Notes under the pieces: model-generated
What the model was told of the DNA's origin: nothing
Database searches by the model: none
What the model saw: only the letters and a program-made list of their open reading frames with translations
Shown: positions 1,775-59,342 of the stretch, piece by piece
Layout: every line of letters begins with the position of its first letter
Numbering within the stretch: the first letter of the stretch is position 1
Position numbers and translations under genes: made by a program
Assembly (NCBI RefSeq): GCF_016717175.1
Contig: NZ_JADKFZ010000003.1
DNA length: 64,000 bases
Source: Nannocystis sp.
GTDB lineage: Bacteria; Myxococcota_A; Polyangia; Nannocystales; Nannocystaceae
Strand: one strand, 5' to 3'

Positions 1775-4042
1775 ATGTCGTGCGTGCGTTCCAAGCTCTC
1801 CATCGCCTTCTCGTCTCTGCTCTTGCTGGCCTGCAATGGCAGCAAGGCCGACTCCGCGAACCCCGGCGGCAGCGGCAGCGAGGTGCAGGCGGGCGGCGAC
1901 ACCACGCCCGCGGCCTTCAAGTTCCAGAACCCCGGCGGCATGTGGATGCCCCGTCAGATGGCGCAGCACGCCGACACCTTGAAGAAGCTCGGCGTCAGCT
2001 ACGACCCGAAAGCCCTCACCGACCCGACCGCCTTCCCGCTCAACGCGGTCGTCAGCCTCGGCGGCTGTACGGCCTCCTTCGTCTCGCCGGACGGCCTGCT
2101 CATCACCAACCACCACTGTGTCACCCGCTACCTGCAGCACAACGCCACCCCGGAGAAGAACCTGCTCAAGGAGGGCTACCTCGCGGCGACCCGCGCCGAC
2201 GAGAAGTCGGGCGGACCGACCGCGCGGGTGTGGGTCACCACGGCCTTCACCGACGTGAGTGACAAGGTGCTCGGCGGCCTCGAGGCCGTCACCGACGACA
2301 AGGATCGCTACAAGCAGATCGAGGAGCGCCGCAAGCAGATCGTCAACACCTGCGAGAACGGCCGCCCCGAGGTCGCCTGCTCGGTGGCCAGCTTCTTCGA
2401 GGGCGCGCAGTTCTTCCAGATCGAACAGGCCGAGATCCGTGACGTGCGCCTCGTGTACGCCCCGGCCGCGGGCATCGGCAACTACGGCGGCGAGGTCGAC
2501 AACTGGCGCTGGCCGCGCCACACCGGCGACTTCTCGTTCTTCCGCGCCTACGTCGGCAAGGACGGCAAGCCGGCCGACTTCAGCCCCGACAACGTCCCCT
2601 ACAAGCCGGCTCACCACCTGAAGGTCGCCACCACCAAGGCCGCGGCCGACGGCTTCGTCATGGTCGCCGGCTACCCCGGTCGGACCCAGCGGCTCAAGAC
2701 CGCCGCCGAGGCGCAGCAGGCCGCCGACTGGTACTACAGCCGCCAGATCGCGCTCTACGAGGAGCACATCGCCGTGCTCGAGACGATCGGCAAGGACCGG
2801 CCCGACGTCGCGATCAAGGGCGCCTCCCGCCTGCGCAACCTCCACAACTACCTCACCAACTTCAAGGGCGTGCGCGACGGCCTGGTCAAGGGCGGCGTCG
2901 CGGCCGAGAAGGCCCGCCTCGAGGGCGAGCTGCAGAAGTGGATCGACAGCGACGTGGCGCGCAAGGCCAAGTACGGCGACGTGCTCGCCAAGATGGCGGC
3001 GCTCAGCCAGGAGCGGGCCCGGACCCGCGAGCACGACATGGCCCAGGACGAGCTCCTGCGCGGCTCCCAGCTGCTCGGCGTCGCCGACACGATCGTCAAG
3101 CTCGCCGACGAGCGCCAGAAGCCAGACCCCGAGCGCAAGCTCGGCTTCCAGGAGCGCGACGCCAAGGACCTCGAGCAGGGCTTCCAGGCCATGCAGAGCT
3201 CCTACGATCCGGACATGGACCGCGCGGTGTTCAAGCTCTACCTGCAGCGCGCCGCCAAGCTGCCGGAGGCCGAACGCCCCGAGGTCCTCGCCGCGGTGCT
3301 CGGCGCCGGCAAGGCCAGCGACGCCGACATCGATCGCGCCCTGACCGCGCTCTACAAGACAAGCAAGCTCGGCGACTCGAAGGCCCGCATCGATCTGCTC
3401 AAGACGGCGACCCCGGCGAGCCTGGCGAAGAGCAAGGACCCCTTCATCAAGCTCGCGCTCAAGGTCAAGCCGGTGGTCGACGCCTACAAGGCCCGCAGCG
3501 AGGCCCAGGCCGGCGCGCTCGCGGCCCTGCGTCCCCGCTACATCGAGGCGCTCCAGACCTACTCCGGCGGCACCCTCGCGCCCGACGCCAACGGCACCCT
3601 GCGCATCACCTTCGGCACCATCCGCGGCTACAGCCCGCAGCCCGGCGCGCCGGTCTACACCCCGTTCACGAAGCTCTCCGAGGTCGTCGCCAAGCACACC
3701 GGGGAGGAGCCCTTCAACGCCCCGAAGGCGCTGCTCGACGCCGTGGCCGCCAAGAAGTTCGGGCCCTATGTTGACCCGACCCTCGGCGAGGTCCCGGTCA
3801 ACTTCCTCACCGACCTCGACATCACCGGCGGCAACTCGGGATCGTCCACCCTCAACGCCGCCGGCGAGCTGACCGGCCTCGTGTTCGACGGCAACATCGA
3901 GGCGATGGCCAGCGACTGGGTGTTCATGCCGGCGATCACCCGCTCGATCCACGTCGACATCCGCTACGTGCTGTGGGTGATGGACGCGGTCGACAACGCC
4001 GACCACCTGCTCACCGAGATGGGCGTCACGCCCGCGATCTGA
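1775..4042 (+). CDS. Family S46 dipeptidyl-peptidase (DPP7/DPP11-like) lipoprotein
   Basis: ORF 1625..4042 with the ATG at 1775. Signal peptide plus lipobox (LLLAC|NG). GGCTASFVSPDGLLITNHHC catalytic-His region typical of S46 peptidases. Confidence 0.8.
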   Translation: MSCVRSKLSIAFSSLLLLACNGSKADSANPGGSGSEVQAGGDTTPAAFKFQNPGGMWMPRQMAQHADTLKKLGVSYDPKALTDPTAFPLNAVVSLGGCTASFVSPDGLLITNHHCVTRYLQHNATPEKNLLKEGYLAATRADEKSGGPTARVWVTTAFTDVSDKVLGGLEAVTDDKDRYKQIEERRKQIVNTCENGRPEVACSVASFFEGAQFFQIEQAEIRDVRLVYAPAAGIGNYGGEVDNWRWPRHTGDFSFFRAYVGKDGKPADFSPDNVPYKPAHHLKVATTKAAADGFVMVAGYPGRTQRLKTAAEAQQAADWYYSRQIALYEEHIAVLETIGKDRPDVAIKGASRLRNLHNYLTNFKGVRDGLVKGGVAAEKARLEGELQKWIDSDVARKAKYGDVLAKMAALSQERARTREHDMAQDELLRGSQLLGVADTIVKLADERQKPDPERKLGFQERDAKDLEQGFQAMQSSYDPDMDRAVFKLYLQRAAKLPEAERPEVLAAVLGAGKASDADIDRALTALYKTSKLGDSKARIDLLKTATPASLAKSKDPFIKLALKVKPVVDAYKARSEAQAGALAALRPRYIEALQTYSGGTLAPDANGTLRITFGTIRGYSPQPGAPVYTPFTKLSEVVAKHTGEEPFNAPKALLDAVAAKKFGPYVDPTLGEVPVNFLTDLDITGGNSGSSTLNAAGELTGLVFDGNIEAMASDWVFMPAITRSIHVDIRYVLWVMDAVDNADHLLTEMGVTPAI

Positions 4043-4343: not shown

Positions 4344-6209
4344 TCACTTGCGGCGGTTCTTCTTGCGCGCCAGCTTCTCCGCCTTGCGCTTCGCCGCGAT
4401 CGCCTTGTAGTCGATGGCACCCTTCGGCGCGCCCGGATGCCCGCCCATGCCGCCATGCCCACCGAGGTTCGGCGCGCCCGGTTGTCCACCCGGCAGCCCC
4501 GGCATGCCTGGCAGCCCACCCATGCCCGGCATGCCGCCCATGCCCGGCATGCCGCCCATGCCCGGCAGTCCGCCCATTCCCGGCATGCCGCCGCCGCCGA
4601 ACATCGAGCTCAGCGCCTCCGGGTTCTGGGCCAGCTTGCGCAGCGCGTTGAGCTGCTTGAGGCTGCCCATCCCGGGGATCTTGTCCATCAGCCCGCCGAG
4701 GCCGCCGCGCTTCTGATCACCGCCGGGCATGCCCGGGATGAGCCCGCCGAACATGCCGCCCATCATGCCGAACATGTCGCGCATGCTGATGAAGCGGGCG
4801 ATGAGCCCACGGACCTCGTCCTCCGTGCGCGCGCTGCCGCGGGCCACCCGGGCGACGCGGCTCTGCACGAAGTCCTCGGGCTTCATGTTGTTGGGGTCGG
4901 GCATGCCGGCCGCCGGGTCACGCCGCTTGCGCCGGCTGAGTTTGGCCGCGGCCGACTGCTTCGGGTCCTTGTCGAAGAACAGCTCCGGCTCGTTGCGCTC
5001 CGCCTTCGTCATCGAGCGGATCATCGCCTCGACCTTGCCGAGCTCCTTGTCGTCGGTCGCCTGCTGCATCGCCTCGGGCGGGATCTCGATCCCGAACATG
5101 CTGGCGAGGGGCATCTTCTCCATGATGTCCTTCAGGCTGCCCATGCTCTGGATGTTCTTGATCTGGGTCAGGAAGTCATCCATCGAGAACTTGCCCGAGA
5201 GCATCTTCTCGGCGTCCTTCGCGGCCGTCTCCTCGTCGACGACCTCCTGGAAGTCGTTCATCAGCCCGACCAGGTCGCCCATCCCTAGGATGCGCCCGGC
5301 CAGACCCTCGGGGCGGAACTCGTCGAGCTTGTCGAGCTGCTCGCCGATGCCGAGGAACTTGATCGGCTTGCCGGTGACCGCCTTCACCGACAGCGCCGCG
5401 CCGCCGCGGGCGTCGCCGTCGAGCTTGGTCAGGATCACGCCGGTGACGTCGAGCTTCTCGTCGAAGGCCTTCGCGGTGGTCACCGCGTCCTGGCCAATCA
5501 TCGCGTCGATCACCAGGAAGATGTTCGACGGCTGGACCCGCGTCTTGATGTCCGCGAGCTCCTGCATCAACACGGCGTCGATCGTCAGGCGACCGGCGGT
5601 GTCGTAGATGACGAAGTCGTAGTTCTCGGCCGCGGCGGTGTCGGTCGCGTCGGCGCAGATGTCGACCGGGTTGGCCCCGTCGATCGAGAACACCGGCAGC
5701 CCGAGCTTCTCGCCCAGCACCTTGAGCTGGTGCACCGCGGCCGGACGGTACACGTCCGCGGCCACCAGCATCACCTTGTAGCCGGCCTTCTGCAGCTTGC
5801 GCGCGAGCTTGCCGGTGGTGGTCGTCTTGCCCGAGCCCTGCAGGCCCACCATCATGATGCCCGTGACGCCCTTGCGCGCCCGCGACAGCGAGGTGTCCAC
5901 CGGACCCATCAGCGCGATCAGCTCGTCGTGGCAGATCTTGACGAAGTGGTCCTCGGCGCGGACCCGCAGCGTCTCGCTCTGCTTCTTCGCGACCAGCTGC
6001 ACCTTCTCGCCGAGCGCCTTCTCTTTGACCGCCTGCAAGAAGCGCTTGACCACCCCGAACTCGACGTCCGCCTCGAGCAAGCTCAGGCGCACGTCCTTCA
6101 GAGCGGCGTTGACCACGTCCTCGGTCAACTCGCCTTTGCCAGTCAAACGCTCGCGCGCGGCCCGGAAACCCTTCGATAATGTCTCGAACACGGCCGGGCG
6201 TTCTACCAC
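4344..6209 (-). CDS. ffh: Signal recognition particle protein Ffh with a ~140-aa Gly/Met-rich repetitive C-terminal extension and basic tail
   Basis: ORF 4344..6209(-). N and G domains (GLQGSGKTTT, DTAGR, TKLDGD) and an M domain. C-terminus has (GMPG/GLPG) repeats ending KRKAEKLARKKNRRK. Confidence 0.9.
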   Translation of the reverse strand: MVERPAVFETLSKGFRAARERLTGKGELTEDVVNAALKDVRLSLLEADVEFGVVKRFLQAVKEKALGEKVQLVAKKQSETLRVRAEDHFVKICHDELIALMGPVDTSLSRARKGVTGIMMVGLQGSGKTTTTGKLARKLQKAGYKVMLVAADVYRPAAVHQLKVLGEKLGLPVFSIDGANPVDICADATDTAAAENYDFVIYDTAGRLTIDAVLMQELADIKTRVQPSNIFLVIDAMIGQDAVTTAKAFDEKLDVTGVILTKLDGDARGGAALSVKAVTGKPIKFLGIGEQLDKLDEFRPEGLAGRILGMGDLVGLMNDFQEVVDEETAAKDAEKMLSGKFSMDDFLTQIKNIQSMGSLKDIMEKMPLASMFGIEIPPEAMQQATDDKELGKVEAMIRSMTKAERNEPELFFDKDPKQSAAAKLSRRKRRDPAAGMPDPNNMKPEDFVQSRVARVARGSARTEDEVRGLIARFISMRDMFGMMGGMFGGLIPGMPGGDQKRGGLGGLMDKIPGMGSLKQLNALRKLAQNPEALSSMFGGGGMPGMGGLPGMGGMPGMGGMPGMGGLPGMPGLPGGQPGAPNLGGHGGMGGHPGAPKGAIDYKAIAAKRKAEKLARKKNRRK

Positions 6210-8271: not shown

Positions 8272-10612
8272 GTGGAAGCCTCGCGGTCGATCGCCCTGTG
8301 TCTCCTGCTCGCCGCGTGCAAGGGCGGCGACGGCAACGACGGCGGCAGCGAGACTGGGGGCACCGGCGGCGGCTCGGCCAGCAGCGGCGACGAGCCGACC
8401 ACCGGCGACCCCGTGTGCACCGACTGCACCCCCGTCGGCATGATGAGCTTTCGCCTGCCCTCGCCCGCGGGCGCGACCCTGTGGACCGCGACGACGATGG
8501 ACAAGGTCCTGCGCGAGGCGGCCCCGCCCGAGGCCACCGCCCCCGCGATCCAGATCCACGCCGCCCGCAACGAGTACGAGCCCTTCCAGCTGGTCGTGCG
8601 CAGCGACACCGACGCCATGGTCAGCGTCAGCGTCTCCGATTTCAGCGGACCCGGCCCGCTCCCCGCGGTGACGCTGCACCGCGTCGACTACGTGAACATC
8701 GCCGCCCCCTCCGACCCGGGCGCGATCCTCAGCGGCCAGATCCCCGACCCGTTGGTCCCGATCGCCTTCGGCACCCCCGTGGCTGTCAGCGCCGCGAGCA
8801 ACCAGCCGCTGTGGTTCACCGCGCAGGTCCCCGCCGACGCCCTCGCCGGCGACTACAACGCCACCATCACGGTGACCATCGCCGGCCTCGCCCACGAGGT
8901 CCCGGTCCAGCTCCACGTCTTCAACTTCGCCATCCCGGCCCAGCTCGGCTTCGACGGCAACTGGAACACCAGCTTCGAGGCCCTCGGCGGCGGCGCCAGC
9001 CTCGAGCGCGTCGAGCTGCTCAAGGACTTCTTCTTCGCCCACCGACTGGTCCCATCGTCGGTCGCCTGGCCGGCGGGCACCAACTACAACGGCGGCATCA
9101 TCTACGACTGCGCCGCCGGCGTGTTCAAGGAGGAGGTCAACGACTACGACATCTCGTCGCTCGGCCCGAAGTACATCGACGGCGTCGGCTGGAACGGCGT
9201 CGGCTTCCCGTCGTTCCAGGCCATGACCTTCGTCGACAACAGCACGCCGCGGCCGCAGCTCTTCTGCGACGTCGACCGCGGCCCCGACCACGTCGGCACC
9301 GCCGAGTACAACGCCGCCTGGTCGAAGATGCTGACCGCCCTCGACGCCTACCTGGTCGGCAAGGGCTGGGCCGGCAAGGCCTACTACTACACGCAGAACG
9401 AGCCCCAGGGCCCCGCCGACTACGACACCGCCGCCTACCTGGCGACCCTCACCCGCAGCGCCGCGCCCAACCTGCGCCTGGCGATCAGCGAGGAGCCCAA
9501 ACCCGAGATCGCCGAGCACCCGCAGATCGCCGGCAACCACTACGACCTGTGGTGGGCCAACCTCTCCGCCTTCGAGCCCGTCTACGCCGCCACGCGTCAG
9601 GCCTTAGGCGAGCAGGTGTGGTGGTACTTCCTCTACGGCGACCTCCCGCCGCACTTCAACCCGATCACCATCGATCACGCCGGCATCGAGACCCGCGTCG
9701 CCCACTGGGCCGCCTGGAAGTTCCGCATCCGCGGCTTCGCCTACTACTCCGTCACCGGCTGGGGCGCCGACCCGATCGTCGACCCACGCCCGCAGGGCAC
9801 CAATCAGAACGGCGACGGCTTCCTCCTCTATCCCCCCTCAGGGCGACGCGCTCGTCACCAGCATCCGCTGGGAGCTGCTGCGCGAGGGCATCGAGGACCA
9901 CGAGTACCTCCGCCTCGCCGCCGGCGGCAACTATCCCGCGACCCCGGCCGAGGTCGTCGGCTGCGACGTCTCGGTCGCCAGCGCCGTCTCCTCGACCACC
10001 GCCTACACCCGCGACGCCTCGGGCCTGCAGCACCTGCGCGACGAGCTCGGCTTCTACCTCGAGGGTGCGCGCAGCGGCTGTCCGCTGCTCATGACGAACG
10101 CCCCCGGCGTGCACAAGCGGGCCCCGTACTACCTGAACTTTCAGGACCCCGCCGGCGAGCCCGCCACGGACCCGCTGCAGGTCGACGGCCAGACCTGGCA
10201 GAAGGTCGGCTGGGTCCCCTACGCCGTCGAACAGGGCTTCGGCTGGTCGGGCCCCTACATCGGCGATCCCGCGATCATGAAGGCCCAGTACCTCGCTGAT
10301 GCCCCCGTCGATGAGCTGCAGCGCAGCATCCTCTACAACGACTACGGCCGCACCGACACCTTCAACTGGGACATCGAGCCCGGCCTCTACACCGTCACCG
10401 TCTCGGTCGGCTGGCACGGCAAGGACTACCCGAAGCACCGCGTCATCGTCGAGGGCACTCCGCTGTTCGACTCGGTCCCCACCACGATGGCCGAGCCCTA
10501 CCGCGTCGCCTCGATCGACGTGATGGTCAGCGATGGCAACCTCACCCTCGAGGCGGGCCAGATGGACGAGTACACGATGCTCAACTGGCTCAGCATCGTC
10601 CCGAAGGATTGA
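8272..10612 (+). pseudogene. Glycoside-hydrolase-like lipoprotein (DUF4091/GH123-like C-terminal region) interrupted by a +1 frameshift in a C6 run at 9832-9837
   Basis: Frame 1 (GTG 8272, lipobox LLLAAC|KG) reads to ...GDGFLLYPPS and then becomes Arg-rich nonsense. Frame 2 continues ...PPQGDALVTSIRWELLREGIEDHEY... to the stop at 10612 (ORF 10091..10612). Removing one C restores a single ~780-aa ORF. Confidence 0.6.
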
Positions 10613-10645
10613 CCGCCGCGCGCGAGATTGCGCTAAGCTGCCGCA

Positions 10646-12283
10646 GTGCGCCTCCTGACCCTGCTTTGCGGCTCGCTCCTCGCCACCCCGGCCCTCGCTG
10701 GCGAGACCAAGATTGTCCTCGATGGCGCCGTCCCGGACGGCGACCTCGACCACTTCTTCGTGCCCTTCGACGTCCCGCCCGGCACCGTCGAGATCGAGGT
10801 GCAGCACGATGACCTCTCCGACGCCAACATCCTCGACTGGGGCCTCAACGACCCCGCGGGCTTTCGCGGCTGGGGTGGCGGCAACAGCGAGCCCGCCGTC
10901 GTCGGCCTCGCCGCCGCCTCGCGCAGCTACGTCGCCGGCCCGATCGCCGCGGGCGAGTGGCGGGTCGTCGTCGGCAAGGCGAAGCTCGTCGAGACCCCCG
11001 CGAGCTACGCCCTCACGGTGATCCTGCGCGACGCGCCGAGCCTCGCGCCGCAGCCCGAACGCGCCGCCTACCAGCCCTTCGCGGGCCTCGGCGGCGGTCC
11101 GCGCTGGTACGCCGGCGACTTCCACGTCCACTCGCGCGAGAGCGGCGACGCCAAGCCCCCGCTCGCCGAGATCGCCGCCCTCGCGCGCAGCCGCGGCCTC
11201 GACTTCGTCGAGATCAGCGACCACAACACCCTCACCCAGCTCGAGTTCTTCGCCGCCGCCCAGGCCGAACAGTCGGAGCTTCTGTTCGTCCCGGGCAGCG
11301 AGTTCACCACCTACGCGGGCCACGCCAACGCGATCGGCGCGACCGCTTGGGTCGACCACAAGATCGGCCAGCCCGGCGTCACGATCGCCGCCGCAGCCGC
11401 GGCCTACGCCGCCCAGGGCGCGTTGTTCTCGATCAACCACCCGGCGCTCGACCTCGGCGACGTGTGCATCGGCTGCGCCTGGAAGCACGAGATCCCGGCC
11501 GAGCTCGCCGCCGTCGAGGTCGCAACGGGCGGGCTCGACAAGGCCGGTAAGTACCTCACCGACGATAGCATCGCCTTCTGGGACAAGCTGTGCGGCGAGG
11601 GCCGTCACCTCGCGGCGATCGGCGGCAGCGACGACCACCGCGCCGGGAAGGACCTCGGCGCCTTCGACAGCCCCGTCGGCGATCCCACCACGATGATCTA
11701 CGCCGACGAGCTCAGCACCCCCGCGCTGCTCGCGGGCATCGCCGCCGGTCGCACCGTGGTCAAGCTGCAGGGACCCGGCGATCCGATGCTCGAGCTCGCC
11801 GCCGATGTCTCCCCGATCGGCGACACCATCACCGCCGACGCCGTCACCCTGCAGGCCACGGTCACCGGCGCGCCCGGGGGCAGCAGCGTCCGCTTCCTCC
11901 GCAACGGCCAGGGGATGCCCCCGATTCCGATCGACGACGACCCCTTCGTCGCCAGCGTGCAGGCCACCGCGCCCGCCACCGGCGAGGACCGCTGGCGCGC
12001 CGAGGTGATCGTCGAGGGCGCGCCGCGCACGATCACCAGCCATCTGTGGCTGCGCGACGATCCCTCATCCGCCCCGACCACCGGCCCCGAGCCCACCACC
12101 GGCCTCGACGCGAGCAGCGGCAGCACCGCCGCGCCCACCGGCGGCGCTCCGGGCAGCAGCAGCAGCGGTTCCCCCGAGGAGACCCCAGGCGAAACTGGCG
12201 GCTGCGCGTGTGACCTGAAGAAAAGGCCGAGCGCCCCCATGTTGCTGGCGCTGCTCGTGCTCATCCGCCGACGCCGGGACTAG
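10646..12283 (+). CDS. PHP-domain (CehA/McbA-like) metallophosphoesterase with a Cys-motif/TM/Arg-rich C-terminal sorting tail (MYXO-CTERM-like)
   Basis: Signal peptide. WYAGDFHVHSRESGDA...FVEISDHNT PHP motifs. C-terminus GGCACDLKKRPSAPMLLALLVLIRRRRD matches the Cys-motif/TM/Arg-rich architecture of MYXO-CTERM. Confidence 0.75.
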   Translation: MRLLTLLCGSLLATPALAGETKIVLDGAVPDGDLDHFFVPFDVPPGTVEIEVQHDDLSDANILDWGLNDPAGFRGWGGGNSEPAVVGLAAASRSYVAGPIAAGEWRVVVGKAKLVETPASYALTVILRDAPSLAPQPERAAYQPFAGLGGGPRWYAGDFHVHSRESGDAKPPLAEIAALARSRGLDFVEISDHNTLTQLEFFAAAQAEQSELLFVPGSEFTTYAGHANAIGATAWVDHKIGQPGVTIAAAAAAYAAQGALFSINHPALDLGDVCIGCAWKHEIPAELAAVEVATGGLDKAGKYLTDDSIAFWDKLCGEGRHLAAIGGSDDHRAGKDLGAFDSPVGDPTTMIYADELSTPALLAGIAAGRTVVKLQGPGDPMLELAADVSPIGDTITADAVTLQATVTGAPGGSSVRFLRNGQGMPPIPIDDDPFVASVQATAPATGEDRWRAEVIVEGAPRTITSHLWLRDDPSSAPTTGPEPTTGLDASSGSTAAPTGGAPGSSSSGSPEETPGETGGCACDLKKRPSAPMLLALLVLIRRRRD

Positions 12284-12450
12284 CTGGCCCGAGAGACAGC
12301 CTCACACGAAGGGCGAGCGGTACGGCGGCCGGCGCCGGGTGTTCGTCCCGAGCTCGGCGTAGCTGGCCCGAGAGACAGCCTCACACGAAGGGCGAGCGGT
12401 ACGGCGGCCGGCGCGGGGTGTTCGTCCCGAGCTCGGCGTAGCTGGCCCGC
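12281..12450. repeat. 79-bp tandem direct duplication (2 copies plus a 12-bp partial third; one mismatch between copies) containing the stop codons of both convergent flanking genes
   Basis: Copies at 12281-12359 and 12360-12438, with partial 12439-12450. Unit begins with the PHP-gene TAG and contains the tsaB TGA plus the last 20 tsaB codons. The boundaries share gggccagcta microhomology. Confidence 0.85.
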
Positions 12451-13100
12451 AGGTACAGCGCGTCGACGTGATCGATCTCGGCGGGTTGATCGCGCCTGAA
12501 GGCCCGGGCGGCCGCCCGCCACAGCCCGCGCCCGTCGACGCCCGGCGTCGTCTGCAGCGCGAAGCCAGCCAGCGCCTCCGCGTAGGCCGCCGCGCCTGGT
12601 CCCACGACCTGGATGCCTGGCGCATCGACCATGTCCGTGAGGACCTGTCCGATCGGACAGCAGCGCGGCTCGCCCAGTGCCCGCGGTCCCTCCTCCGCGA
12701 GTACGAAGCGAGCCGCGTAGACCTCGCCGCGTCGCGCGTCGAGCAGCGCCAGCACCTCGCCGTCGCGCGTCGCCCCGCCGGCCAGGCTCGCCAGGGTGCT
12801 GAGCGCGAACAGCGGGCAGGGGAGGGCGAAGGCCAGCCCCTTCGCCGTCGCCAGCGCCACGCGGGTGCCGGTGAAGGTGCCCGGCCCCACGCCGCAGGCG
12901 ATCGCTCCGAGCTGGCGCGGTGTGATGCCCGCCTCCTCGAGCAGCGCGGAGATCCTCGGCGCGAGCAGACTTGAGGCCGGCGCCGCGCGATCGTCGTGGG
13001 TCGCCTGCGCGACCAGTCCGTCCGCGTCGCCGCCGACCCGCCCAAGGGCGAGCGCCGTGCACGGCGTCGAGGTGTCCAGCGCCAGCAGCCAGGTCGACAT
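12381..13100 (-). CDS. tsaB: tRNA threonylcarbamoyladenosine biosynthesis protein TsaB (YeaZ)
   Basis: Within ORF 12381..13559(-). MSTWLLALDTSTPCTALAL... and GVGPGTFTGTRVALATAKG are characteristic. The ATG at 13100-13098 overlaps the rseP TGA by 1 nt. The upstream ORF extension is antisense of rseP and rejected. Confidence 0.75.
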   Translation of the reverse strand: MSTWLLALDTSTPCTALALGRVGGDADGLVAQATHDDRAAPASSLLAPRISALLEEAGITPRQLGAIACGVGPGTFTGTRVALATAKGLAFALPCPLFALSTLASLAGGATRDGEVLALLDARRGEVYAARFVLAEEGPRALGEPRCCPIGQVLTDMVDAPGIQVVGPGAAAYAEALAGFALQTTPGVDGRGLWRAAARAFRRDQPAEIDHVDALYLRASYAELGTNTPRRPPYRSPFV

Positions 13101-14731
13101 CAGTCCATCCAGATGCGCATCACGTCGTTGCGCAGGGCGATGAGGAGGAGCAGCAGGATGATGACCAGACCGATCGCGCTGGCGATCTCCCGCGCCCGCT
13201 GGCTGAGCGGTCGGCGGCGCAGCGCCTCGATCGTGAAGAACATCAGGTGCCCACCGTCGAGGATCGGGATCGGTAGCAGGTTGACGAAGCCGAGGTTGAT
13301 GCTGAGCAGCGCCATCAGCCGCAGGAACTCGGCCCAGCCCTGGTTGGCGGCCGTGCCAGCGACGTCGAAGATGCCGACCACCGAGCTCAGCTCCTCCACG
13401 CCGCGCTCGCCGGTCACCATCTGCCGCAGGGTCGTCCACATCATCATCAACATCGACCCGGTGGTCGTCAGCGCCGAGCGCATCGCGTACGTGAAGCGCC
13501 CGCGGATCGGCTCGGGCGGCGGCGTCATGCGGCTGTGGTAGGGCTCGGCCCCGAACCACAGGTAGCTGCGCGCGTCCTTGTAGAGCCCGCGGTAGCTGCG
13601 GATCTCCTGCGTGACCTGCACTTCGCGCGGCGCCTGGCCAGGCGACTGCACCGTCAACGCCAGTGGTTGCTCGCCCTGACGATCGAGCAGCACCGCGACC
13701 GTCTCCCAGCGCGTCACCGGTCGATCAGCCACCGCGAGCACCCGGTCGCCCGGAGCGATGCCCGCCTTCGCGGCCGGCGAGTCCGGCTCGACCGTGCGGA
13801 CGAAGGTGTTGGCCGGCAACAGCCCGGTGCTCTGCCCGCGCTCGTGCCGTGGCAGCAGGCGCGCGTGGTACGAGTCGAACCACAGGTAGCGACCGAGCTC
13901 GCCGCGCACGGCCTGGGGCCGCAGGTAGGTGAGGCGCAGCGCGCCGTCGCGGCTGCGCTCGAGCTCTCGCTCGAGACCCTCGATCGTCTCGACCGGCTCG
14001 CCGTTGACCGAGGTGATGATGTCACCGGTCTGCAGGCCCTCGGCGTGGGCCGGGGAGTCGGTGTCGATGATCCCTATCTGCGGCGCGTAGACCCACTGGG
14101 TCACCCCGAGCAGGCCGCGCGCCTCGTGTTCGCCCACCATGTTCTTCGCCACGCTCTTGCGCGGCGTGACGAAGCGGTCGAAGCGGACCCCGTCGCGCTC
14201 GATCTGCAGGCGAAGCTCGCGGCCCGGGGCGACACGTACGCGGTCCTGCATCTCCTGCCACGCGTGGATGTCATCGCCCTCGATCGCCACGATGCGATCG
14301 CCCGACTGTAGGTCCGAGGCCGCCGCCGCCGAGTCGTCGAGCACGGTGCCGATGATCGGCGGTGCCACCACGGTGTGCCCGAGGAAGAACGCGAAGTAGA
14401 TGAACAGCGGGAGCAGCAGGTTGAACGCCGGACCTGCCCCGAGGACCAGGTAGCGGGCCCACAGCGGTTTGTTGCGCAGCGCCCGGTCGGCGTCCTGCGG
14501 GCTCAGCTCCTCGTCCGGCGACGCGCCCAGCAGGGTCACATAGCCGCCGAGCGGGATCGGAGCGATGCGGTACTCCGTCTCCCCGATCTGCACCCGCGCC
14601 AGCGCCGGACCGAAGCCCAGCGAGAAGCGCACAGCCTTGACCCCGACGAGCTTCGCCGCCAGCAAGTGACCGAGCTCGTGGATGAAGATCAGCGGCCCGA
14701 TCAACAGGATGAACGCGAGAAAATACGTCAC
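13100..14731 (-). CDS. rseP: RIP zinc metalloprotease RseP (site-2 protease) with PDZ domains
   Basis: ORF 13100..14731(-). HELGH zinc motif in the first TM segment, PDZ repeats, LDGG motif. Confidence 0.9.
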   Translation of the reverse strand: MTYFLAFILLIGPLIFIHELGHLLAAKLVGVKAVRFSLGFGPALARVQIGETEYRIAPIPLGGYVTLLGASPDEELSPQDADRALRNKPLWARYLVLGAGPAFNLLLPLFIYFAFFLGHTVVAPPIIGTVLDDSAAAASDLQSGDRIVAIEGDDIHAWQEMQDRVRVAPGRELRLQIERDGVRFDRFVTPRKSVAKNMVGEHEARGLLGVTQWVYAPQIGIIDTDSPAHAEGLQTGDIITSVNGEPVETIEGLERELERSRDGALRLTYLRPQAVRGELGRYLWFDSYHARLLPRHERGQSTGLLPANTFVRTVEPDSPAAKAGIAPGDRVLAVADRPVTRWETVAVLLDRQGEQPLALTVQSPGQAPREVQVTQEIRSYRGLYKDARSYLWFGAEPYHSRMTPPPEPIRGRFTYAMRSALTTTGSMLMMMWTTLRQMVTGERGVEELSSVVGIFDVAGTAANQGWAEFLRLMALLSINLGFVNLLPIPILDGGHLMFFTIEALRRRPLSQRAREIASAIGLVIILLLLLIALRNDVMRIWMD

Positions 14732-19581: not shown

Positions 19582-20094
19582 ATGACAGAGATCGCCCAGC
19601 TCTTCGAGTCTGCGCTCCGGCAGAACCGTGCCAACCTGCTGCGCAAAGCCGCGATCAACACCGTGGCCAAGATGCCGGCACAGACCACCTTGCACGAGCT
19701 CCTCAGCAGCGAAGCAGGCACCTCGATCCGCGAGCTCACCCTCCACGAGCTGCGTGAGGCGCTGACCGGCTTCGTCCCCGCAGCGGGCGCTCGTCGGAGC
19801 CCGGGTGCAGCCAGTCACAGCGGCCCAGGCGGCCACACCAGTCACTCCGGCGTGACGGTGAACGCCGCCACGCCGGCCGCCAATAACGCCTCCCCGGAGA
19901 GCCGCGAGGCCCGGCTCTACCGCCAGATCATCGACGCCGTCGGCCACGAGCCGAAGACCATCGGCCAGCTCGCCAAGGTCGTCGATGTCGACGTGGTCGA
20001 GCTCCGCGGCTATCTCGCGTGGATGAAGAAGATGGGCAAGATCGACAGCACTGGCCGAGCCCGGGCCACCCGCTATCACCTGCCAGCTGGTTGA
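19582..20094 (+). CDS. Hypothetical protein with C-terminal winged-helix-like segment
   Basis: In-frame ATG inside ORF 19435..20094. C-terminal TIGQLAKVVDVDVVELRGYLAWMKKMGKI resembles a wHTH. The upstream part of the ORF looks non-coding. Confidence 0.45.
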   Translation: MTEIAQLFESALRQNRANLLRKAAINTVAKMPAQTTLHELLSSEAGTSIRELTLHELREALTGFVPAAGARRSPGAASHSGPGGHTSHSGVTVNAATPAANNASPESREARLYRQIIDAVGHEPKTIGQLAKVVDVDVVELRGYLAWMKKMGKIDSTGRARATRYHLPAG

Positions 20095-20157
20095 CCACGC
20101 CAGGCTGACCACGCCAGGCTGACCACGCCAGGCTGATCACGCCAGGCTGACCACGGC
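20093..20157. repeat. 14-bp microsatellite (gaccacgccaggct) x4.5 beginning inside the stop codon of the upstream gene
   Basis: Direct reading of 20091-20160. One copy has a C-to-T substitution. Confidence 0.9.
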
Positions 20158-26301: not shown

Positions 26302-26338
26302 ACGGCCCTGACGGCCCTGGGCGGCCCTGGACGGCCCT
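26300..26338. repeat. 9-10-bp microsatellite (g)acggccct x4 starting inside the thioesterase stop codon
   Basis: tgAacggccctgacggccctgggcggccctggacggccct read directly. Confidence 0.85.
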
Positions 26339-26373
26339 TGACCGCCGCGAACCCTTTCCGTAGCGTGCTCGCC

Positions 26374-31404: not shown

Positions 31405-31863
31405 ATGTCCCCCGAGGCCCCCGCACCCGCCGAGCCGAGCCCCGTGTTCGAGCAGCGCCGCACCGTCGTCGCCGCCGACATCGACGCCCTCGGCCACGTC
31501 AACAACCTCCGCTACCTCGAGTGGGTCCTCGCCGCCGCGATCGATCACTCGGAGGCCGTCGGATGGAGCCTCGCCCGCTACCAGGAGCTCGGCGCCGCGT
31601 GGGTCGTGCGCTCGCACGCGATCGAGTACCTGCGCCCCGCCTTCGTCGACGACGATCTGCTCGTCCGCACCTGGGTCAGCGAGATGACCAAGGTCAGCTC
31701 GCGCCGCAAGACGACCGTGTCGCGGGCCGACGGCACCACGCTAGCCCGCTGCGAGACCCTCTGGGTGTTCGTCAGCCGCCGCGCCCACGCCCTCGACCGC
31801 GTCCCGCCCGAGCTCGCCGCCGCCTTCCCGCTGATCCCCGACGCCCCGCCGCGCGTCCGGTGA
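31405..31863 (+). CDS. Hotdog-fold thioesterase (YbgC/4HBT-like)
   Basis: Internal ATG of ORF 31225..31863. DIDALGHVNNLRYLEW motif of 4HBT thioesterases. Confidence 0.65.
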   Translation: MSPEAPAPAEPSPVFEQRRTVVAADIDALGHVNNLRYLEWVLAAAIDHSEAVGWSLARYQELGAAWVVRSHAIEYLRPAFVDDDLLVRTWVSEMTKVSSRRKTTVSRADGTTLARCETLWVFVSRRAHALDRVPPELAAAFPLIPDAPPRVR

Positions 31864-31926
31864 TGCTGGCCCGCCCCGCGTCGGGTGATGCGGGTCCCGG
31901 GCGCTCCGCCGCGCGTCCGGTGATAT
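31842..31926. repeat. ~30-bp imperfect tandem repeat x3 (ccgccgcgcgtccggtgat...) spanning the thioesterase stop codon up to the gpsA start region
   Basis: Copies at ~31842, ~31871 (degenerate) and ~31901, each carrying gtccggtgat or gtcgggtgat with an in-frame tga. Confidence 0.7.
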
Positions 31927-38568: not shown

Positions 38569-40434
38569 ATGACGAGCAAGCCGGGCCCGATCCTCGGCAT
38601 CGACCTGGGGACCACCAACTCCTGCGTCGCCGTGATGGACGGCGGCGAGGCGCGCGTGCTCGCCAACCGCGAGGGCAGCCGCACCACCCCGAGCGTCGTC
38701 GCCTTCGTCGGCGACGACATCCTCGTCGGCGAGGCCGCCCGCCAGCGCGCCAGCAAAGATCCAGCCGCCACCGTGTTCGCCGCCAAGCGCCTCATCGGCC
38801 GCAAGTTCGCCGAGGTCGAGGCCGTGCGCCGCGGGCTGCCTTACACCGTCGTCGCCGCGGCCAACGGCGACGCCTGGGCCGAAGTCCACGGCCGCCGCCG
38901 CTCACCCAGCCAGATCTCCGCGCAGGTGCTCGCGTACCTCAAGGACGCCGCCGCCGACGCGCTCGGCGAGCCGGTCACCCGCGCCATCATCACCGTCCCC
39001 GCCTACTTCGACGACGCCCAGCGCCAGGCCACCCGCGACGCCGGCACCATCGCCGGCCTCCGCGTCGAGCGCATCCTCAGCGAGCCCACCGCCGCCGCCC
39101 TCGCTTACGGCCTCCATGACCGCAAGGACAGGCCGCCCCAGATCGTCGCCGTCTACGACCTCGGCGGCGGCACCTTCGACGTCTCCCTGCTCGAGCTGCG
39201 CAGCGGCGCCTTCGAGGTCCTCGCCACCGCCGGCGACTCGCAGCTCGGCGGCGAGGACTTCGACAGCGCCGTCGTCGATCACATCGCCGACCTGTTCCAG
39301 CGCGAGCACGGCGTCGATCTGCGCAGCGATCGCGCCGCCCTCGCGCGCCTGCGTGACGCCGCCCAGCGGGCCAAGCACGAGCTCAGCTGGGCCCTCGCCA
39401 CCGAGCTGAACCTGCCCTTCATCGCCGCCGTCGACGGCCAGCCGCTGCACCTCGCGCTCACGCTCACCCGCCGCGAACTCGAGCGCCTCACGCGGCCGCT
39501 GATCGATCGCAGCCTCGGCCCCTGTCGCCGCGTCCTCGCCGACGCCGGCCTGCGCCGCGACCAGGTCGAGGAGGTCCTGCTGGTCGGCGGCCAGACCCGC
39601 ATGCCCGCGGTCGTCGAGGCCGTGGCCGAGTGCTTCGGCCGCCAGCCCAGCACCGCCCACAACCCCGACGAGGTCGTGGCGATCGGCGCCGCGATCCAGG
39701 GCGCCGTCCTGGCCGGCGAGCTCGCCGACCTCGTCCTGCTCGACGTCGTCCCGCTCAGCATCGGCGTCGAGACCCAGGGCGGCGTGTTCTCGGTGCTGAT
39801 CCCCCGCAACACCCCGATCCCCACCCGCCGCACCGAGACCTTCAGCACCAGCGTCGACAACCAATCGATCGTGCACGTGCACGTGCTCCAGGGTCTGCGC
39901 GAGATGGCCGAGGACAACCGCAGCCTCGCCCGCCTGCAGCTCACCGACATCCCGCCCGCCCCGCGCGGCGCCCCGCAGATCCAGGTCCGCTTCGAGCTCG
40001 ACGCCGACGCGATCCTCCGCGTCAGCGCCCGCGAGCTGCTCAGCGGCAAGGAGGCCGCGATCGTCGCCCAGCCCGCCTCCGGCCTGACCCGCGCCGAGGT
40101 CCAGGCGCTCGCCCAGGAGGCCGAGGACGCCCGCCAGCACGACCTCTCCCGCCGCGCCATCGTCGAGACGCGCAACCGCTGCGAGACCCTCGCCTACGCC
40201 TGCGAGCGCGCCCTCGAGGGCTACGGCGAGGGCCTCCCCGCCGCCGTCCGCGAGTCGGTGCAGCGCGACGTCGCGGCCCTGCGCGGGCTGCTCGGTGACC
40301 ATGCGGGCGCCCGCGGCGGCCCCGAGCTGCAAGCCGCCTTCGCCGCGCTCGAGCGATCGTCCCGCCAGATCTACGCCGCGATGCTCGGCGACGCCGAGAC
40401 ACCCGCCCTGCTCGCCGAGGGGTCCCGCGAATGA
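38569..40434 (+). CDS. dnaK: Hsp70-family chaperone (DnaK-like, 622 aa, short C-terminal lid)
   Basis: Internal ATG (38569) of ORF 37963..40434. [25 protein letters not shown], Hsp70 signatures. Its last 16 codons lie in copy 1 of the 74-bp repeat. Confidence 0.8.
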
Positions 40435-40611
40435 GCTACCAGGATCACCACGCCGTCCTCGGCGACGCCGAGACACCCGCCCTGCTCGCCGAGGGGTCCC
40501 GCGAATGAGCTACCAGGATCACCACGCCGTCCTCGGCGAAACACCCGCCCTGCTCGCCGAGGGGTCCCGCGAATGAGCTACCAGGATCACTACGCCGTCC
40601 TCGGCGTCGCC
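40384..40611. repeat. 74-bp tandem repeat x3 (third copy 68 bp) spanning the dnaK stop / dnaJ start junction (ATGA overlap)
   Basis: Copies at 40384-40457, 40458-40531 and 40532-40599. Each holds ...LLAEGSRE-stop overlapping ATGAGCTACCAGGATCAC (MSYQDH). A ctcggcg(a/t)cgcc microhomology sits at the boundaries. Confidence 0.9.
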
Positions 40612-41679
40612 GCCAACGCATCGCAGGACGAGATCAAGGCCGCCTACCGCCGCCTCGCCCTCGCCACGCACCCCGATCGCCACCCCGACGACCCCGACGC
40701 CGAGGCCCGCTTCCGCGCCATCTCCACCGCCTACGCCGTCCTCAGCGACCCGGCCCAGCGCGCCCGCTACGACACCCAGCGCCTCCTCCCCGAGACCCTG
40801 ATCGGCGGGCAGGGCGGGCAGGGGGTCAGCCTCCAGACCGCGAAGGACCTGCTCGCCGCCGTCGTCGGCGACGTGTTCGGCCGCCAGCGCCGCGAGCGTC
40901 GCCGCGGCCGCGACATCCGCTACACCCTCACCGTCGAGCTCGCCCAGGCCGTCCTCGGCGGCGAGCACGAGATCAACTTCGAGGCCGCCGGCGCCTGCAG
41001 CACCTGCGGCGGCACCGGGGCCCGCCCCGCCGGGCGCCCGCCCATCACCTGTCCCTTGTGCCAGGGTCGCGGCGAGGTCAAGGGCGAGGGCTTTCTGCGC
41101 CGCTACAGCCCGTGCGGCCGCTGCGGCGGCGTCGGCATGATCCAGCAAGATCCCTGCGCGCCCTGCTCCGGCCGCGGCTCGCGGCGGGAGAAGCGGAGCT
41201 TCCACGTGCGCCTCCCGCCCGGCACCGAGTCGGGCGTCGAGAAGCTCGTCGAGGGCCAGGGCGAGCCCGGTCAATTCGGCGGCGCACCCGGGCACCTGCG
41301 GGTCACCATCAACGTCCGCCCGCACCCGTGGCTGCGCCGCGAGGGCCTCGACATCCTCGGCGAGCTCTACGTAAGCCTCGGCGAGGCCGCCCGCGGCGGC
41401 AAGCTCCCGGTGCCCACCCTCACCGGGGTGGCGATGGTCGAGATCCCCGCCGGCGTGACCACCGGCGCCAAGCTGCGCCTGCGTGGCAAGGGCGCCCCCG
41501 CCGAGGCCGGACGTCCCGGCGATCAGATCGTCACCGTCGTGATCGAGACCCCGCGGATCACCACCGCCACCGGCGCCCCCGCGACCCACCTCGCCAGCGC
41601 CCTCGACGCCCTCGAGCGCGCCTTCGAGGCCGATCCCCAGCTGCTCCCGCGTCGCGCCGCCCAGCGCAGCGGCGCCTGA
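40573..41679 (+). CDS. dnaJ: Chaperone DnaJ (J domain, Gly-rich region, CxxCxGxG zinc finger)
   Basis: ORF 40573..41679. YAVLGV...HPDR J-domain. CSTCGGTG/CPLCQGRG/CGRCGGVG/CAPCSGRG repeats. The start lies in copy 3 of the repeat. Confidence 0.9.
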   Translation: MSYQDHYAVLGVAANASQDEIKAAYRRLALATHPDRHPDDPDAEARFRAISTAYAVLSDPAQRARYDTQRLLPETLIGGQGGQGVSLQTAKDLLAAVVGDVFGRQRRERRRGRDIRYTLTVELAQAVLGGEHEINFEAAGACSTCGGTGARPAGRPPITCPLCQGRGEVKGEGFLRRYSPCGRCGGVGMIQQDPCAPCSGRGSRREKRSFHVRLPPGTESGVEKLVEGQGEPGQFGGAPGHLRVTINVRPHPWLRREGLDILGELYVSLGEAARGGKLPVPTLTGVAMVEIPAGVTTGAKLRLRGKGAPAEAGRPGDQIVTVVIETPRITTATGAPATHLASALDALERAFEADPQLLPRRAAQRSGA

Positions 41680-59143: not shown

Positions 59144-59210
59144 GGCGCCAGGCATAACATGGTGCCGCGGCATTGCGGTCACCTTCACCTGGCGCCTTCA
59201 CCTGGCGCCT

Positions 59211-59342
59211 TCACTTGGAGAACGCGCGCCCGAGCTCGCGGCTCAGGCGACCGCTCTGCAGGCGGTTCTCGACCTCACCATAGGCGGCATAGAGGGCGGG
59301 GAGCAGGCTGGCGATGGCGACGACGGTGATGAAGAGAGACAT
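59211..59342 (-). CDS. Candidate 43-aa small hydrophobic protein (MSLFITVVAIASLLPALYAAYGEVENRLQSGRLSRELGRAFSK)
   Basis: Own translation; below the size cutoff of the ORF track. AGGAAG Shine-Dalgarno-like sequence 8-11 nt upstream of the ATG. One predicted TM helix. Directly upstream of the lipoprotein gene on the same strand. Confidence 0.3.
   Translation of the reverse strand: MSLFITVVAIASLLPALYAAYGEVENRLQSGRLSRELGRAFSK

Follow-up and report, generated by a model that had tools for sequence, protein, structure and literature searches.

A 79-nt tandem duplication at the convergent ends of a metallohydrolase gene and tsaB in Nannocystis, probably a product of microhomology

Why should a tandem duplication sit exactly where two convergent genes end? 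We analyzed a 64,000-nt stretch of Nannocystis DNA (the window) in which a segment that carries the stop codons of both a PHP-type gene and tsaB is present twice in tandem. A preliminary description of the sequence had proposed that some mechanism or artifact, independent of the locus, targets gene ends. The best genome matches were to Nannocystis MAGs and to N. radixulma, in keeping with a Nannocystis source. We believe that the array is likely a recent, near-neutral tandem duplication mediated by microhomology and formed by slippage or template switching, and that its position at the gene ends reflects selection and not targeting.

The array lies between two convergent genes that are each recognizable from their products. 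The gene at 10646-12283 (plus strand) encodes a CehA/McbA-family metallohydrolase of the PHP superfamily and ends in a TAG codon at 12281-12283. Its product matched NCBIfam NF038032 (2e-60, 204.8 bits, cut-off of 80); the match to Pfam PHP was weak (22.8 bits, under the gathering score). Besides a signal peptide, the protein has a C-terminus that resembles MYXO-CTERM (GGCACD, a hydrophobic stretch, and RRRRD; GGCACD...LLALLVLIRRRRD), and its relatives are annotated as MYXO-CTERM domain-containing or CehA/McbA proteins. On the minus strand, tsaB (yeaZ; 12381-13100) encodes 239 amino acids, with a stop codon that reads TCA on the plus strand at 12381-12383, and is next to the RseP gene (13100-14731). 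TsaB matched TIGR03725 (6.9e-44, 150.4 bits, cut-off of 69.3) with residues 5-218 aligned to profile positions 1-212 of 212. Because the model is complete within those residues, the last 21 residues of TsaB are an extension past the family core. The spacer between the two stop codons (12284-12380) is now 97 nt long, compared to the 18 nt that it would have in the single-copy state.

The array consists of two complete 79-nt copies followed by the first 11 nt of a third. Tandem Repeats Finder (TRF) reported a period of 79, 2.1 copies, 98% matches, 0% indels, and a score of 331 for 12281-12449, the second-strongest tandem array in the 64-kb window. Copy 1 (12281-12359) adjoins the PHP-type gene and is distal to tsaB; copy 2 (12360-12438), with 99% identity to copy 1 in a repeat search, is proximal to tsaB and contains its working last codons and stop codon (TGA, 12381-12383, minus strand). 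The copies abut head-to-tail at 12359/12360 with no filler bases and differ only in having C at 12336 and G at 12415. An 11-mer, TAGCTGGCCCG, is found where the PHP-type gene stops (12281-12291), at the junction of the two copies (12360-12370), and inside tsaB (12439-12449), where this third arm is antisense to codons R-A-S-Y. The layout can thus be written arm-68 nt-arm-68 nt-arm, each arm being 11 nt long. The 11-mer had three matches in 64 kb, all in the array (0.03 expected), and a 39-nt core of the unit had two, at 12292 and 12371 (0.00 expected). Since the core and the 11-mer are confined to the array, the repeat is a genuine feature of this sequence, and chance is excluded as its source.

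The boundaries of the unit could be placed to the base. The flanks differ both on the left (ACGCCGGGAC versus GAGCTCGGCG) and on the right (CAGGTACAGCG versus AGAGACAGCCT), and the repeat indeed starts at the T of the TAG codon. The junction between the copies reads ...CTCGGCG/TAGCTGGCCCG..., with GAGCTCGGCGTAGCTGGCCCGAGAGACAGCC as an example of a 31-mer that spans it. When phased on the microhomology arm and read on the tsaB strand, the unit begins CGGGCCAGCTA and is made up of 22 codons (RASYAELGTNTPRRPPYRSPFV), the TGA codon, and 10 nt. The preliminary description had recognized a 79-bp tandem duplication holding both stop codons, on which TRF, the repeat search, and the coordinates of the open reading frames agree, and it was also right about the start at the TAG codon and the one-base difference between the full copies. 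It had the array running from 12281 to 12450, of which the start stands and the end does not (the array stops at 12449), and it had correctly placed the tsaB tail within the unit, although its count of 20 codons was slightly low.

Copy 1 contains a dead duplicate of the end of tsaB. Its minus strand carries a tsaB-tail relic that is non-functional and has its own TGA codon (12302-12304); in this relic, one codon is CGG (Arg) and not the conserved CCG (Pro) of tsaB. An ORF at 12302-13045 (minus strand) terminates in ...SYAELGTNTRRRPPYRSPFV, which is the relic tail in a different frame. The ORF carries the tsaB-tail peptide because the relic frame is shifted by one nucleotide (79 mod 3 = 1), and its translation bears out the earlier proposal that a frame-shifted second tail accounts for its end. 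Because each of the two convergent genes has its stop codon within the duplicated segment, neither protein is altered.

The tail that was duplicated belongs to tsaB. The preliminary description had left it to be checked whether the tail is native, and we found it in approximately 45 contigs from Nannocystaceae (TsaB identity of approximately 45-95%), each with a single copy. A lack of the tail in close relatives, which that description had named as evidence against its reading, was thus not observed. TsaB in these relatives ends in ...YLR(A/P/D)SYAELG(T/L/V)N(T/Q)P(R/K)R...RSPF(V/I)-stop, and the tail from copy 2 in the window (...SYAELGTNTPRRPPYRSPFV) agrees with the orthologues. The last 21 residues of TsaB are thus, as judged from these alignments, a native C-terminal extension that is specific to Nannocystaceae. 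The Pro codon is retained in the tail-bearing relatives with the exception of one contig (L015, below), and the CGG codon in the relic copy fits relaxed constraint. More distant relatives also have a single copy and are without the second arm.

The layout of the array is that expected of microhomology-mediated tandem duplication, which has been reported to be the dominant route to bacterial tandem duplications (PMC8639346; bioRxiv 10.64898/2026.02.28.708716). The starting state would have been two 11-nt direct repeats, TAGCTGGCCCG, located 79 nt apart, with arm 1 where the PHP-type gene stops and arm 2 within tsaB, opposite its R-A-S-Y codons. If replication slipped, or switched template, from one arm to the other, the intervening segment would have been doubled, giving arm-68 nt-arm-68 nt-arm. 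Each gene would then read into a full copy of its own end, leaving the proteins unchanged and lengthening the spacer from 18 to 97 nt, and the leftover 69 nt of tsaB tail, now dead, would already be drifting (the change from a Pro to an Arg codon). A frameshifting duplication of 79 nt would be expected to persist only where no reading frame is broken.

Several features are consistent with this route. An array of n copies has n+1 arms, and there are two copies and three arms at 12281-12449; the chance of a perfect 11-nt extension past two whole copies is approximately 1.7e-6 at the base composition of the array. The unit starts at TAG because the arm lies there, and not through recognition of a stop codon. 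In microhomology-mediated tandem duplication generally, a single segment flanked by arms becomes arm-segment-arm-segment-arm, as is seen with arms of 11 nt here and 7 nt at dnaK/dnaJ. Nothing essential differs; the particulars here are that the segment holds two convergent stop codons and that its formation is read from the product.

A second array in the window, at 40384-40612 (plus strand), has the same layout. It contains three copies (74, 74, and 68 nt) of the junction between the stop codon of the Hsp70 gene and the start codon of dnaJ, with a 7-nt arm (CTCGGCG), and the ATGA overlap is kept in every copy. Because each copy keeps ATGA, mini-ORFs of 25 and 23 codons join the Hsp70 gene (which ends at 40434) to dnaJ (ATG at 40573). 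The third copy has lost 6 nt and acquired two substitutions, which implies two successive events with divergence between them. Relatives have the Hsp70/dnaJ junction only once; it shows the ATGA overlap and is flanked on each side by a 9-nt arm, TGCTCGGCG. The shared anatomy and the arm agree with the earlier view that the two arrays are events of the same kind. A further case is in the genome of an isolate of N. radixulma (contig L004, 5201-5340), where a 73-nt duplication (1.9 copies, 89% identity) includes the stop codon and approximately the last ten codons of a gene on the minus strand.

Two short-read contigs bear on the array itself. Across window positions 9163-12310, Logan contig L072 (SRR11674041) matches with 99.62% identity. 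It encodes a PHP-type protein that differs from that of the window at two residues, and its end falls precisely 30 nt inside the unit. Logan graphs are built with k = 31, and each 31-mer is unique per accession (PMC12424806). For a unitig that enters from the side of the PHP-type gene, a stop at k-1 = 30 nt is what a tandem junction (...CTCGGCG/TAG...) would cause, because the 30-mer would have a second left context; if the genome had one copy, the 30-mer would be unique and no unitig break would be expected. The end of L072 could in principle come from a drop in coverage or from the merging of another strain at that base. Compared by hand, none of the other recovered strain types would merge at position 30: the L022 type would do so at approximately unit position 37, and the L028 type is too dissimilar to merge. 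The second contig, L015, the only one recovered that shows window-type sequence in single copy, is a mosaic: it matches another strain type at 100% over its positions 340-1215 and the window type at 99-100% over 1215-1600. Its window-type part has arm-68 nt-arm directly adjoining the PHP stop codon, and the mosaic is joined within the unit. We considered L015 as an allele with an empty site and rejected this reading, since its sliding identity marks a mosaic contig with the join in the unit; its single unit may be the distal one of the two copies in a duplicated allele. Contig L014 (98% identical, with a partial tsaB) terminates before the repeat. We also considered the common end of the P0122-type Logan contigs, 54 nt past tsaB, as a signature of the repeat and rejected it, as these contigs have a single copy and no second arm; their break is probably due to strain variation.

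Could the second copy have been introduced during assembly? The true genome might have a single copy of the 79 nt, doubled by a long-read MAG pipeline (presumably Canu, Racon, and Medaka, then Racon with Illumina reads). The window is part of a 621,778-bp MAG contig (MBK9753782.1, MBK9753783.1, MBK9753808.1), and a sister MAG encodes the matching TsaB on a 290,061-bp contig (the protein is identical, MBK9753783.1 and MBK7827742.1), which also carries gene MBK7827741.1. We take both to be products of a long-read study of activated sludge, going by the accession series and by the Nannocystaceae MAGs in the tables of that study. Activated-sludge Nannocystaceae MAGs have been assembled with Canu, Racon, and Medaka, followed by Racon with Illumina reads (PMC8012365). 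That every other recovered contig has a single copy, and that two such arrays are found within 28 kb, would also fit an artifact. However, the copies differ at one base, and the distal CGG allele recurs beside the PHP stop codon in L015, an independent Illumina contig. In the strain with 99.6% identity, the k = 31 contig breaks off at unit position 30, exactly where a true tandem junction should end it, and the endpoints of the array lie on an 11-nt microhomology, as biological slippage predicts; we know of no behavior of a polisher that yields endpoints on microhomology. The diverged third copy at dnaK/dnaJ and the gene-end duplication in the N. radixulma isolate argue in the same direction, and a limited literature search found no small tandem-duplication artifacts of this kind from Canu, Racon, or Medaka. 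A 24-mer specific for the junction had no matches in JGI metagenome contigs, a result that is uninformative because the nearest strain in that collection is at most 92% identical at tsaB. Based on these results, the artifact that had been suggested earlier is unlikely.

If the duplication is real, its position might reflect an active, locus-independent process aimed at gene termini, such as fork stalling or transcription-replication conflict. Such a process would hit convergent or translationally coupled ends and generate MIRU-like VNTR arrays and new spacers that are possibly selected. Five arrays in the 64 kb touch or abut a stop codon (at 12281, 20092, 26302, 31845, and 40384), only approximately 0.2% of uniformly placed segments of 79 nt would include a pair of convergent 3' ends, and the units are similar in length (73, 74, and 79 nt). 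In addition, the dnaK/dnaJ units of 74 and 68 nt are both 2 mod 3, which preserves the ATGA coupling, and gene-end positions are unusually labile among relatives. Against this, the sample is very small and was picked post hoc, the units have no structure or motif in common, and the relatives have no arrays at either locus. Spacers here are also very short, so that surviving arrays necessarily touch gene ends. Selection against frameshifts fully accounts for a census of 29 non-overlapping TRF arrays (score of at least 50) in the 64-kb window, which we compared to a gene map based on GC3. Among 19 arrays inside coding sequences, the period was divisible by three in 17 and not in 2, and these two were weak (70% and 84% identity); among the 10 at a gene boundary or in intergenic DNA, it was divisible by three in 4 and not in 6 (Fisher p = 0.009). 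When 79-nt segments were placed uniformly, 84% were internal to coding sequences and frameshifting, and the 16% that spared all ORFs included many that hold a gene end. Numerous pairs of microhomologies of at least 11 nt are present within coding sequences with no duplication between them. The endpoints were set by the 11-nt direct repeat, and the location is as purifying selection on frameshifts predicts in both the census and the placement model; these findings speak against the targeting of gene ends that had been proposed, which we regard as quite improbable. From this small sample, the location is best explained by survivorship, that is, a generic mutation filtered by selection. It is somewhat less improbable, and still doubtful, that Nannocystis is prone to unusually frequent 70-80-nt junction duplications that seed MIRU-like arrays, with translationally coupled mini-ORFs in cases such as dnaK/dnaJ, and provide spacers for abutting or overlapping convergent genes. 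Least probable by far is the footprint of a mobile or integrative element, either the 3'-end duplication of an att site or the insertion of a 79-nt MITE or MIRU. When integrative elements insert, the 3' end of the target gene is duplicated. A doubled 3' end with the target gene left intact is shared with such elements, and MIRUs sit between genes. However, there is no element here between the copies, which are exactly adjacent, and the unit consists of local DNA (spacer and the tail native to tsaB) and was not imported. It is found nowhere else in the window and has neither terminal inverted repeats nor a stable fold. We rejected the mobile-element or att-site reading on this anatomy.

The arrays resemble mycobacterial MIRU-VNTR and ETR loci in some respects. 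MIRU units are 40-100 nt and located between genes (PMC3184786), and both systems have intergenic tandem units in this size range in a high-GC genome. MIRUs contain small ORFs whose ends overlap with the stop codon or start codon of the adjacent, co-directional genes, as summarized in PMC3184786, which cites Supply et al. 1997. Such mini-ORFs were matched at the dnaK/dnaJ array only. There were no coupled mini-ORFs at the 12281 array, nor are any possible, because the flanking genes are convergent. MIRUs are dispersed, related units at approximately 40-50 loci; in contrast, the Nannocystis units are local sequence and unalike between arrays, and we found no dispersed family of the MIRU type, as the unit core was present within the 64 kb only at 12292 and 12371. 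The copy number at the 12281 array is one in the relatives versus two in the window.

The enlarged spacer region had none of the signals for which we looked. A pattern scan found no terminator or promoter pattern, Rfam had no match at E <= 1, and there was no unusual RNA fold on either strand (z = -0.5 and +1.1 versus shuffled controls). We infer from the lack of these signals that the duplication at 12281-12449 is neutral or nearly so.

We conclude that 12281-12449 is a fresh instance of a well-known type of mutation and that it resembles the first step in the formation of a VNTR or MIRU. The duplication is probably ordinary and harmless and has little biological weight beyond this genome. 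It provides a clean, datable example of how a slippage duplication across gene ends can go unseen by selection, and illustrates how a high-GC genome that is densely packed with genes may gain intergenic DNA and dead gene tails. There are also practical consequences: the ORF at 12302-13045 and the second tsaB tail should be annotated as relics, and short-read assembly graphs break or collapse at 12281-12449. If the copy number varies among strains, this locus and its dnaK/dnaJ sister could mark strains of activated-sludge Nannocystis. If there were a propensity for junction duplications, the arrays would be a myxobacterial counterpart, at the first step, of the genesis of VNTRs in mycobacteria.

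The spacing between the end of the PHP-type gene and that of tsaB was unusually variable among relatives, and the MYXO-CTERM-like tail probably tolerates such shifts in the position of the gene end. In the window-type single-copy state, 18 nt would separate the two stop codons. The genes overlap by approximately 2-3 nt in L001, as read from the sequence by eye, and by 14 nt in the L016 type. In the L028 type, the overlap reaches 61 nt, and the stop codon of the PHP-type gene is the TAG within the RASY codons of tsaB.

The PHP-type gene (a CehA/McbA metallohydrolase) overlapped the 3' end of tsaB in close relatives, to an extent that differed between them. The 61-nt overlap was found in contigs L028-L037, L063 and L064 (e.g., L028 2882-2942), the 14-nt overlap in L016 (3713-3726), and the overlap of about 2-3 nt in L001 (about 3700-3712). 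In the 61-nt type, the stop codon of the PHP-type gene is a TAG antisense to tsaB codons S-Y, and the sequence at that stop, TAGCTGGCCCG, is the same word that forms the arm of the duplication in the window.

One arm of the 79-bp duplication may have arisen by a templated change. In the type represented by Logan contig L022, a perfect 7-bp hairpin (GGCTGTC-TCTCGG-GACAGCC) lies directly 3' of the tsaB stop (L022 3716-3740, compared to window 12281-12305), whereas in the window type two substitutions disrupt it. The same two substitutions distinguish CGGGACAGCCA (L022 type) from CGGGCCAGCTA (window type), and the latter is a perfect copy of an 11-mer inside tsaB. Judging from these sequences, the two substitutions may have been a conversion-like change that made the substrate for slippage.

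Contig L015 (ENA ERZ15185635 NODE_88898, coverage 0.39) combines sequence from two Nannocystis strain types that occur together. The join falls within a 27-mer that both types share, where the repeat unit begins, and neither end of the contig matches either type. This mosaic probably arose by chimeric assembly at low coverage and not by natural recombination. Logan contigs L022-L027, from several samples, have their last base in common; it lies 54 nt beyond the stop of tsaB (...GAGCACGAGCAGCGC), where the PHP-type gene encodes its hydrophobic tail. Branching of the graph through strain variation, rather than a repeat, probably accounts for this shared end.

The array at the junction of the Hsp70 stop and the DnaJ start (window 40384-40612) has three copies, with units of 74, 74, and 68 nt. 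The ATGA overlap is retained in all three copies, and each of the two unit lengths leaves a remainder of 2 on division by 3, so that two mini-ORFs (25 and 23 codons) chain the Hsp70 gene to dnaJ, an arrangement like that of the mycobacterial MIRUs. The copy adjoining dnaJ has the conserved Tyr (TAC) and the remaining copies have His (CAC). The junction is single copy in relatives L065-L071.

Short out-of-frame tandem arrays were also found directly at or after stop codons at window 20092-20155 (14-nt unit; the first bases of the array are the upstream ORF's TGA), 26302-26346 (10-nt unit), 31845-31925 (~25-nt unit, in which GTCCGGTGAT, containing the TGA of a gene, occurs three times), and 59182-59218 (13-nt unit). 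From sequence, repeated gene ends look like a partial source of the intergenic DNA in the window. In N. radixulma (L004), a minus-strand gene has its stop and about its ten final codons within a 73-nt x 1.9 tandem duplication (5201-5340, 89% identity). The spacer 3' of tsaB on the same contig (L004 3720-3810) contains a palindromic motif, ACATGT(C), in several copies.

Over the whole window, the plus strand has a marked excess of C (39.2%) over G (32.4%), a skew of about -0.09, even though it bears most of the genes.
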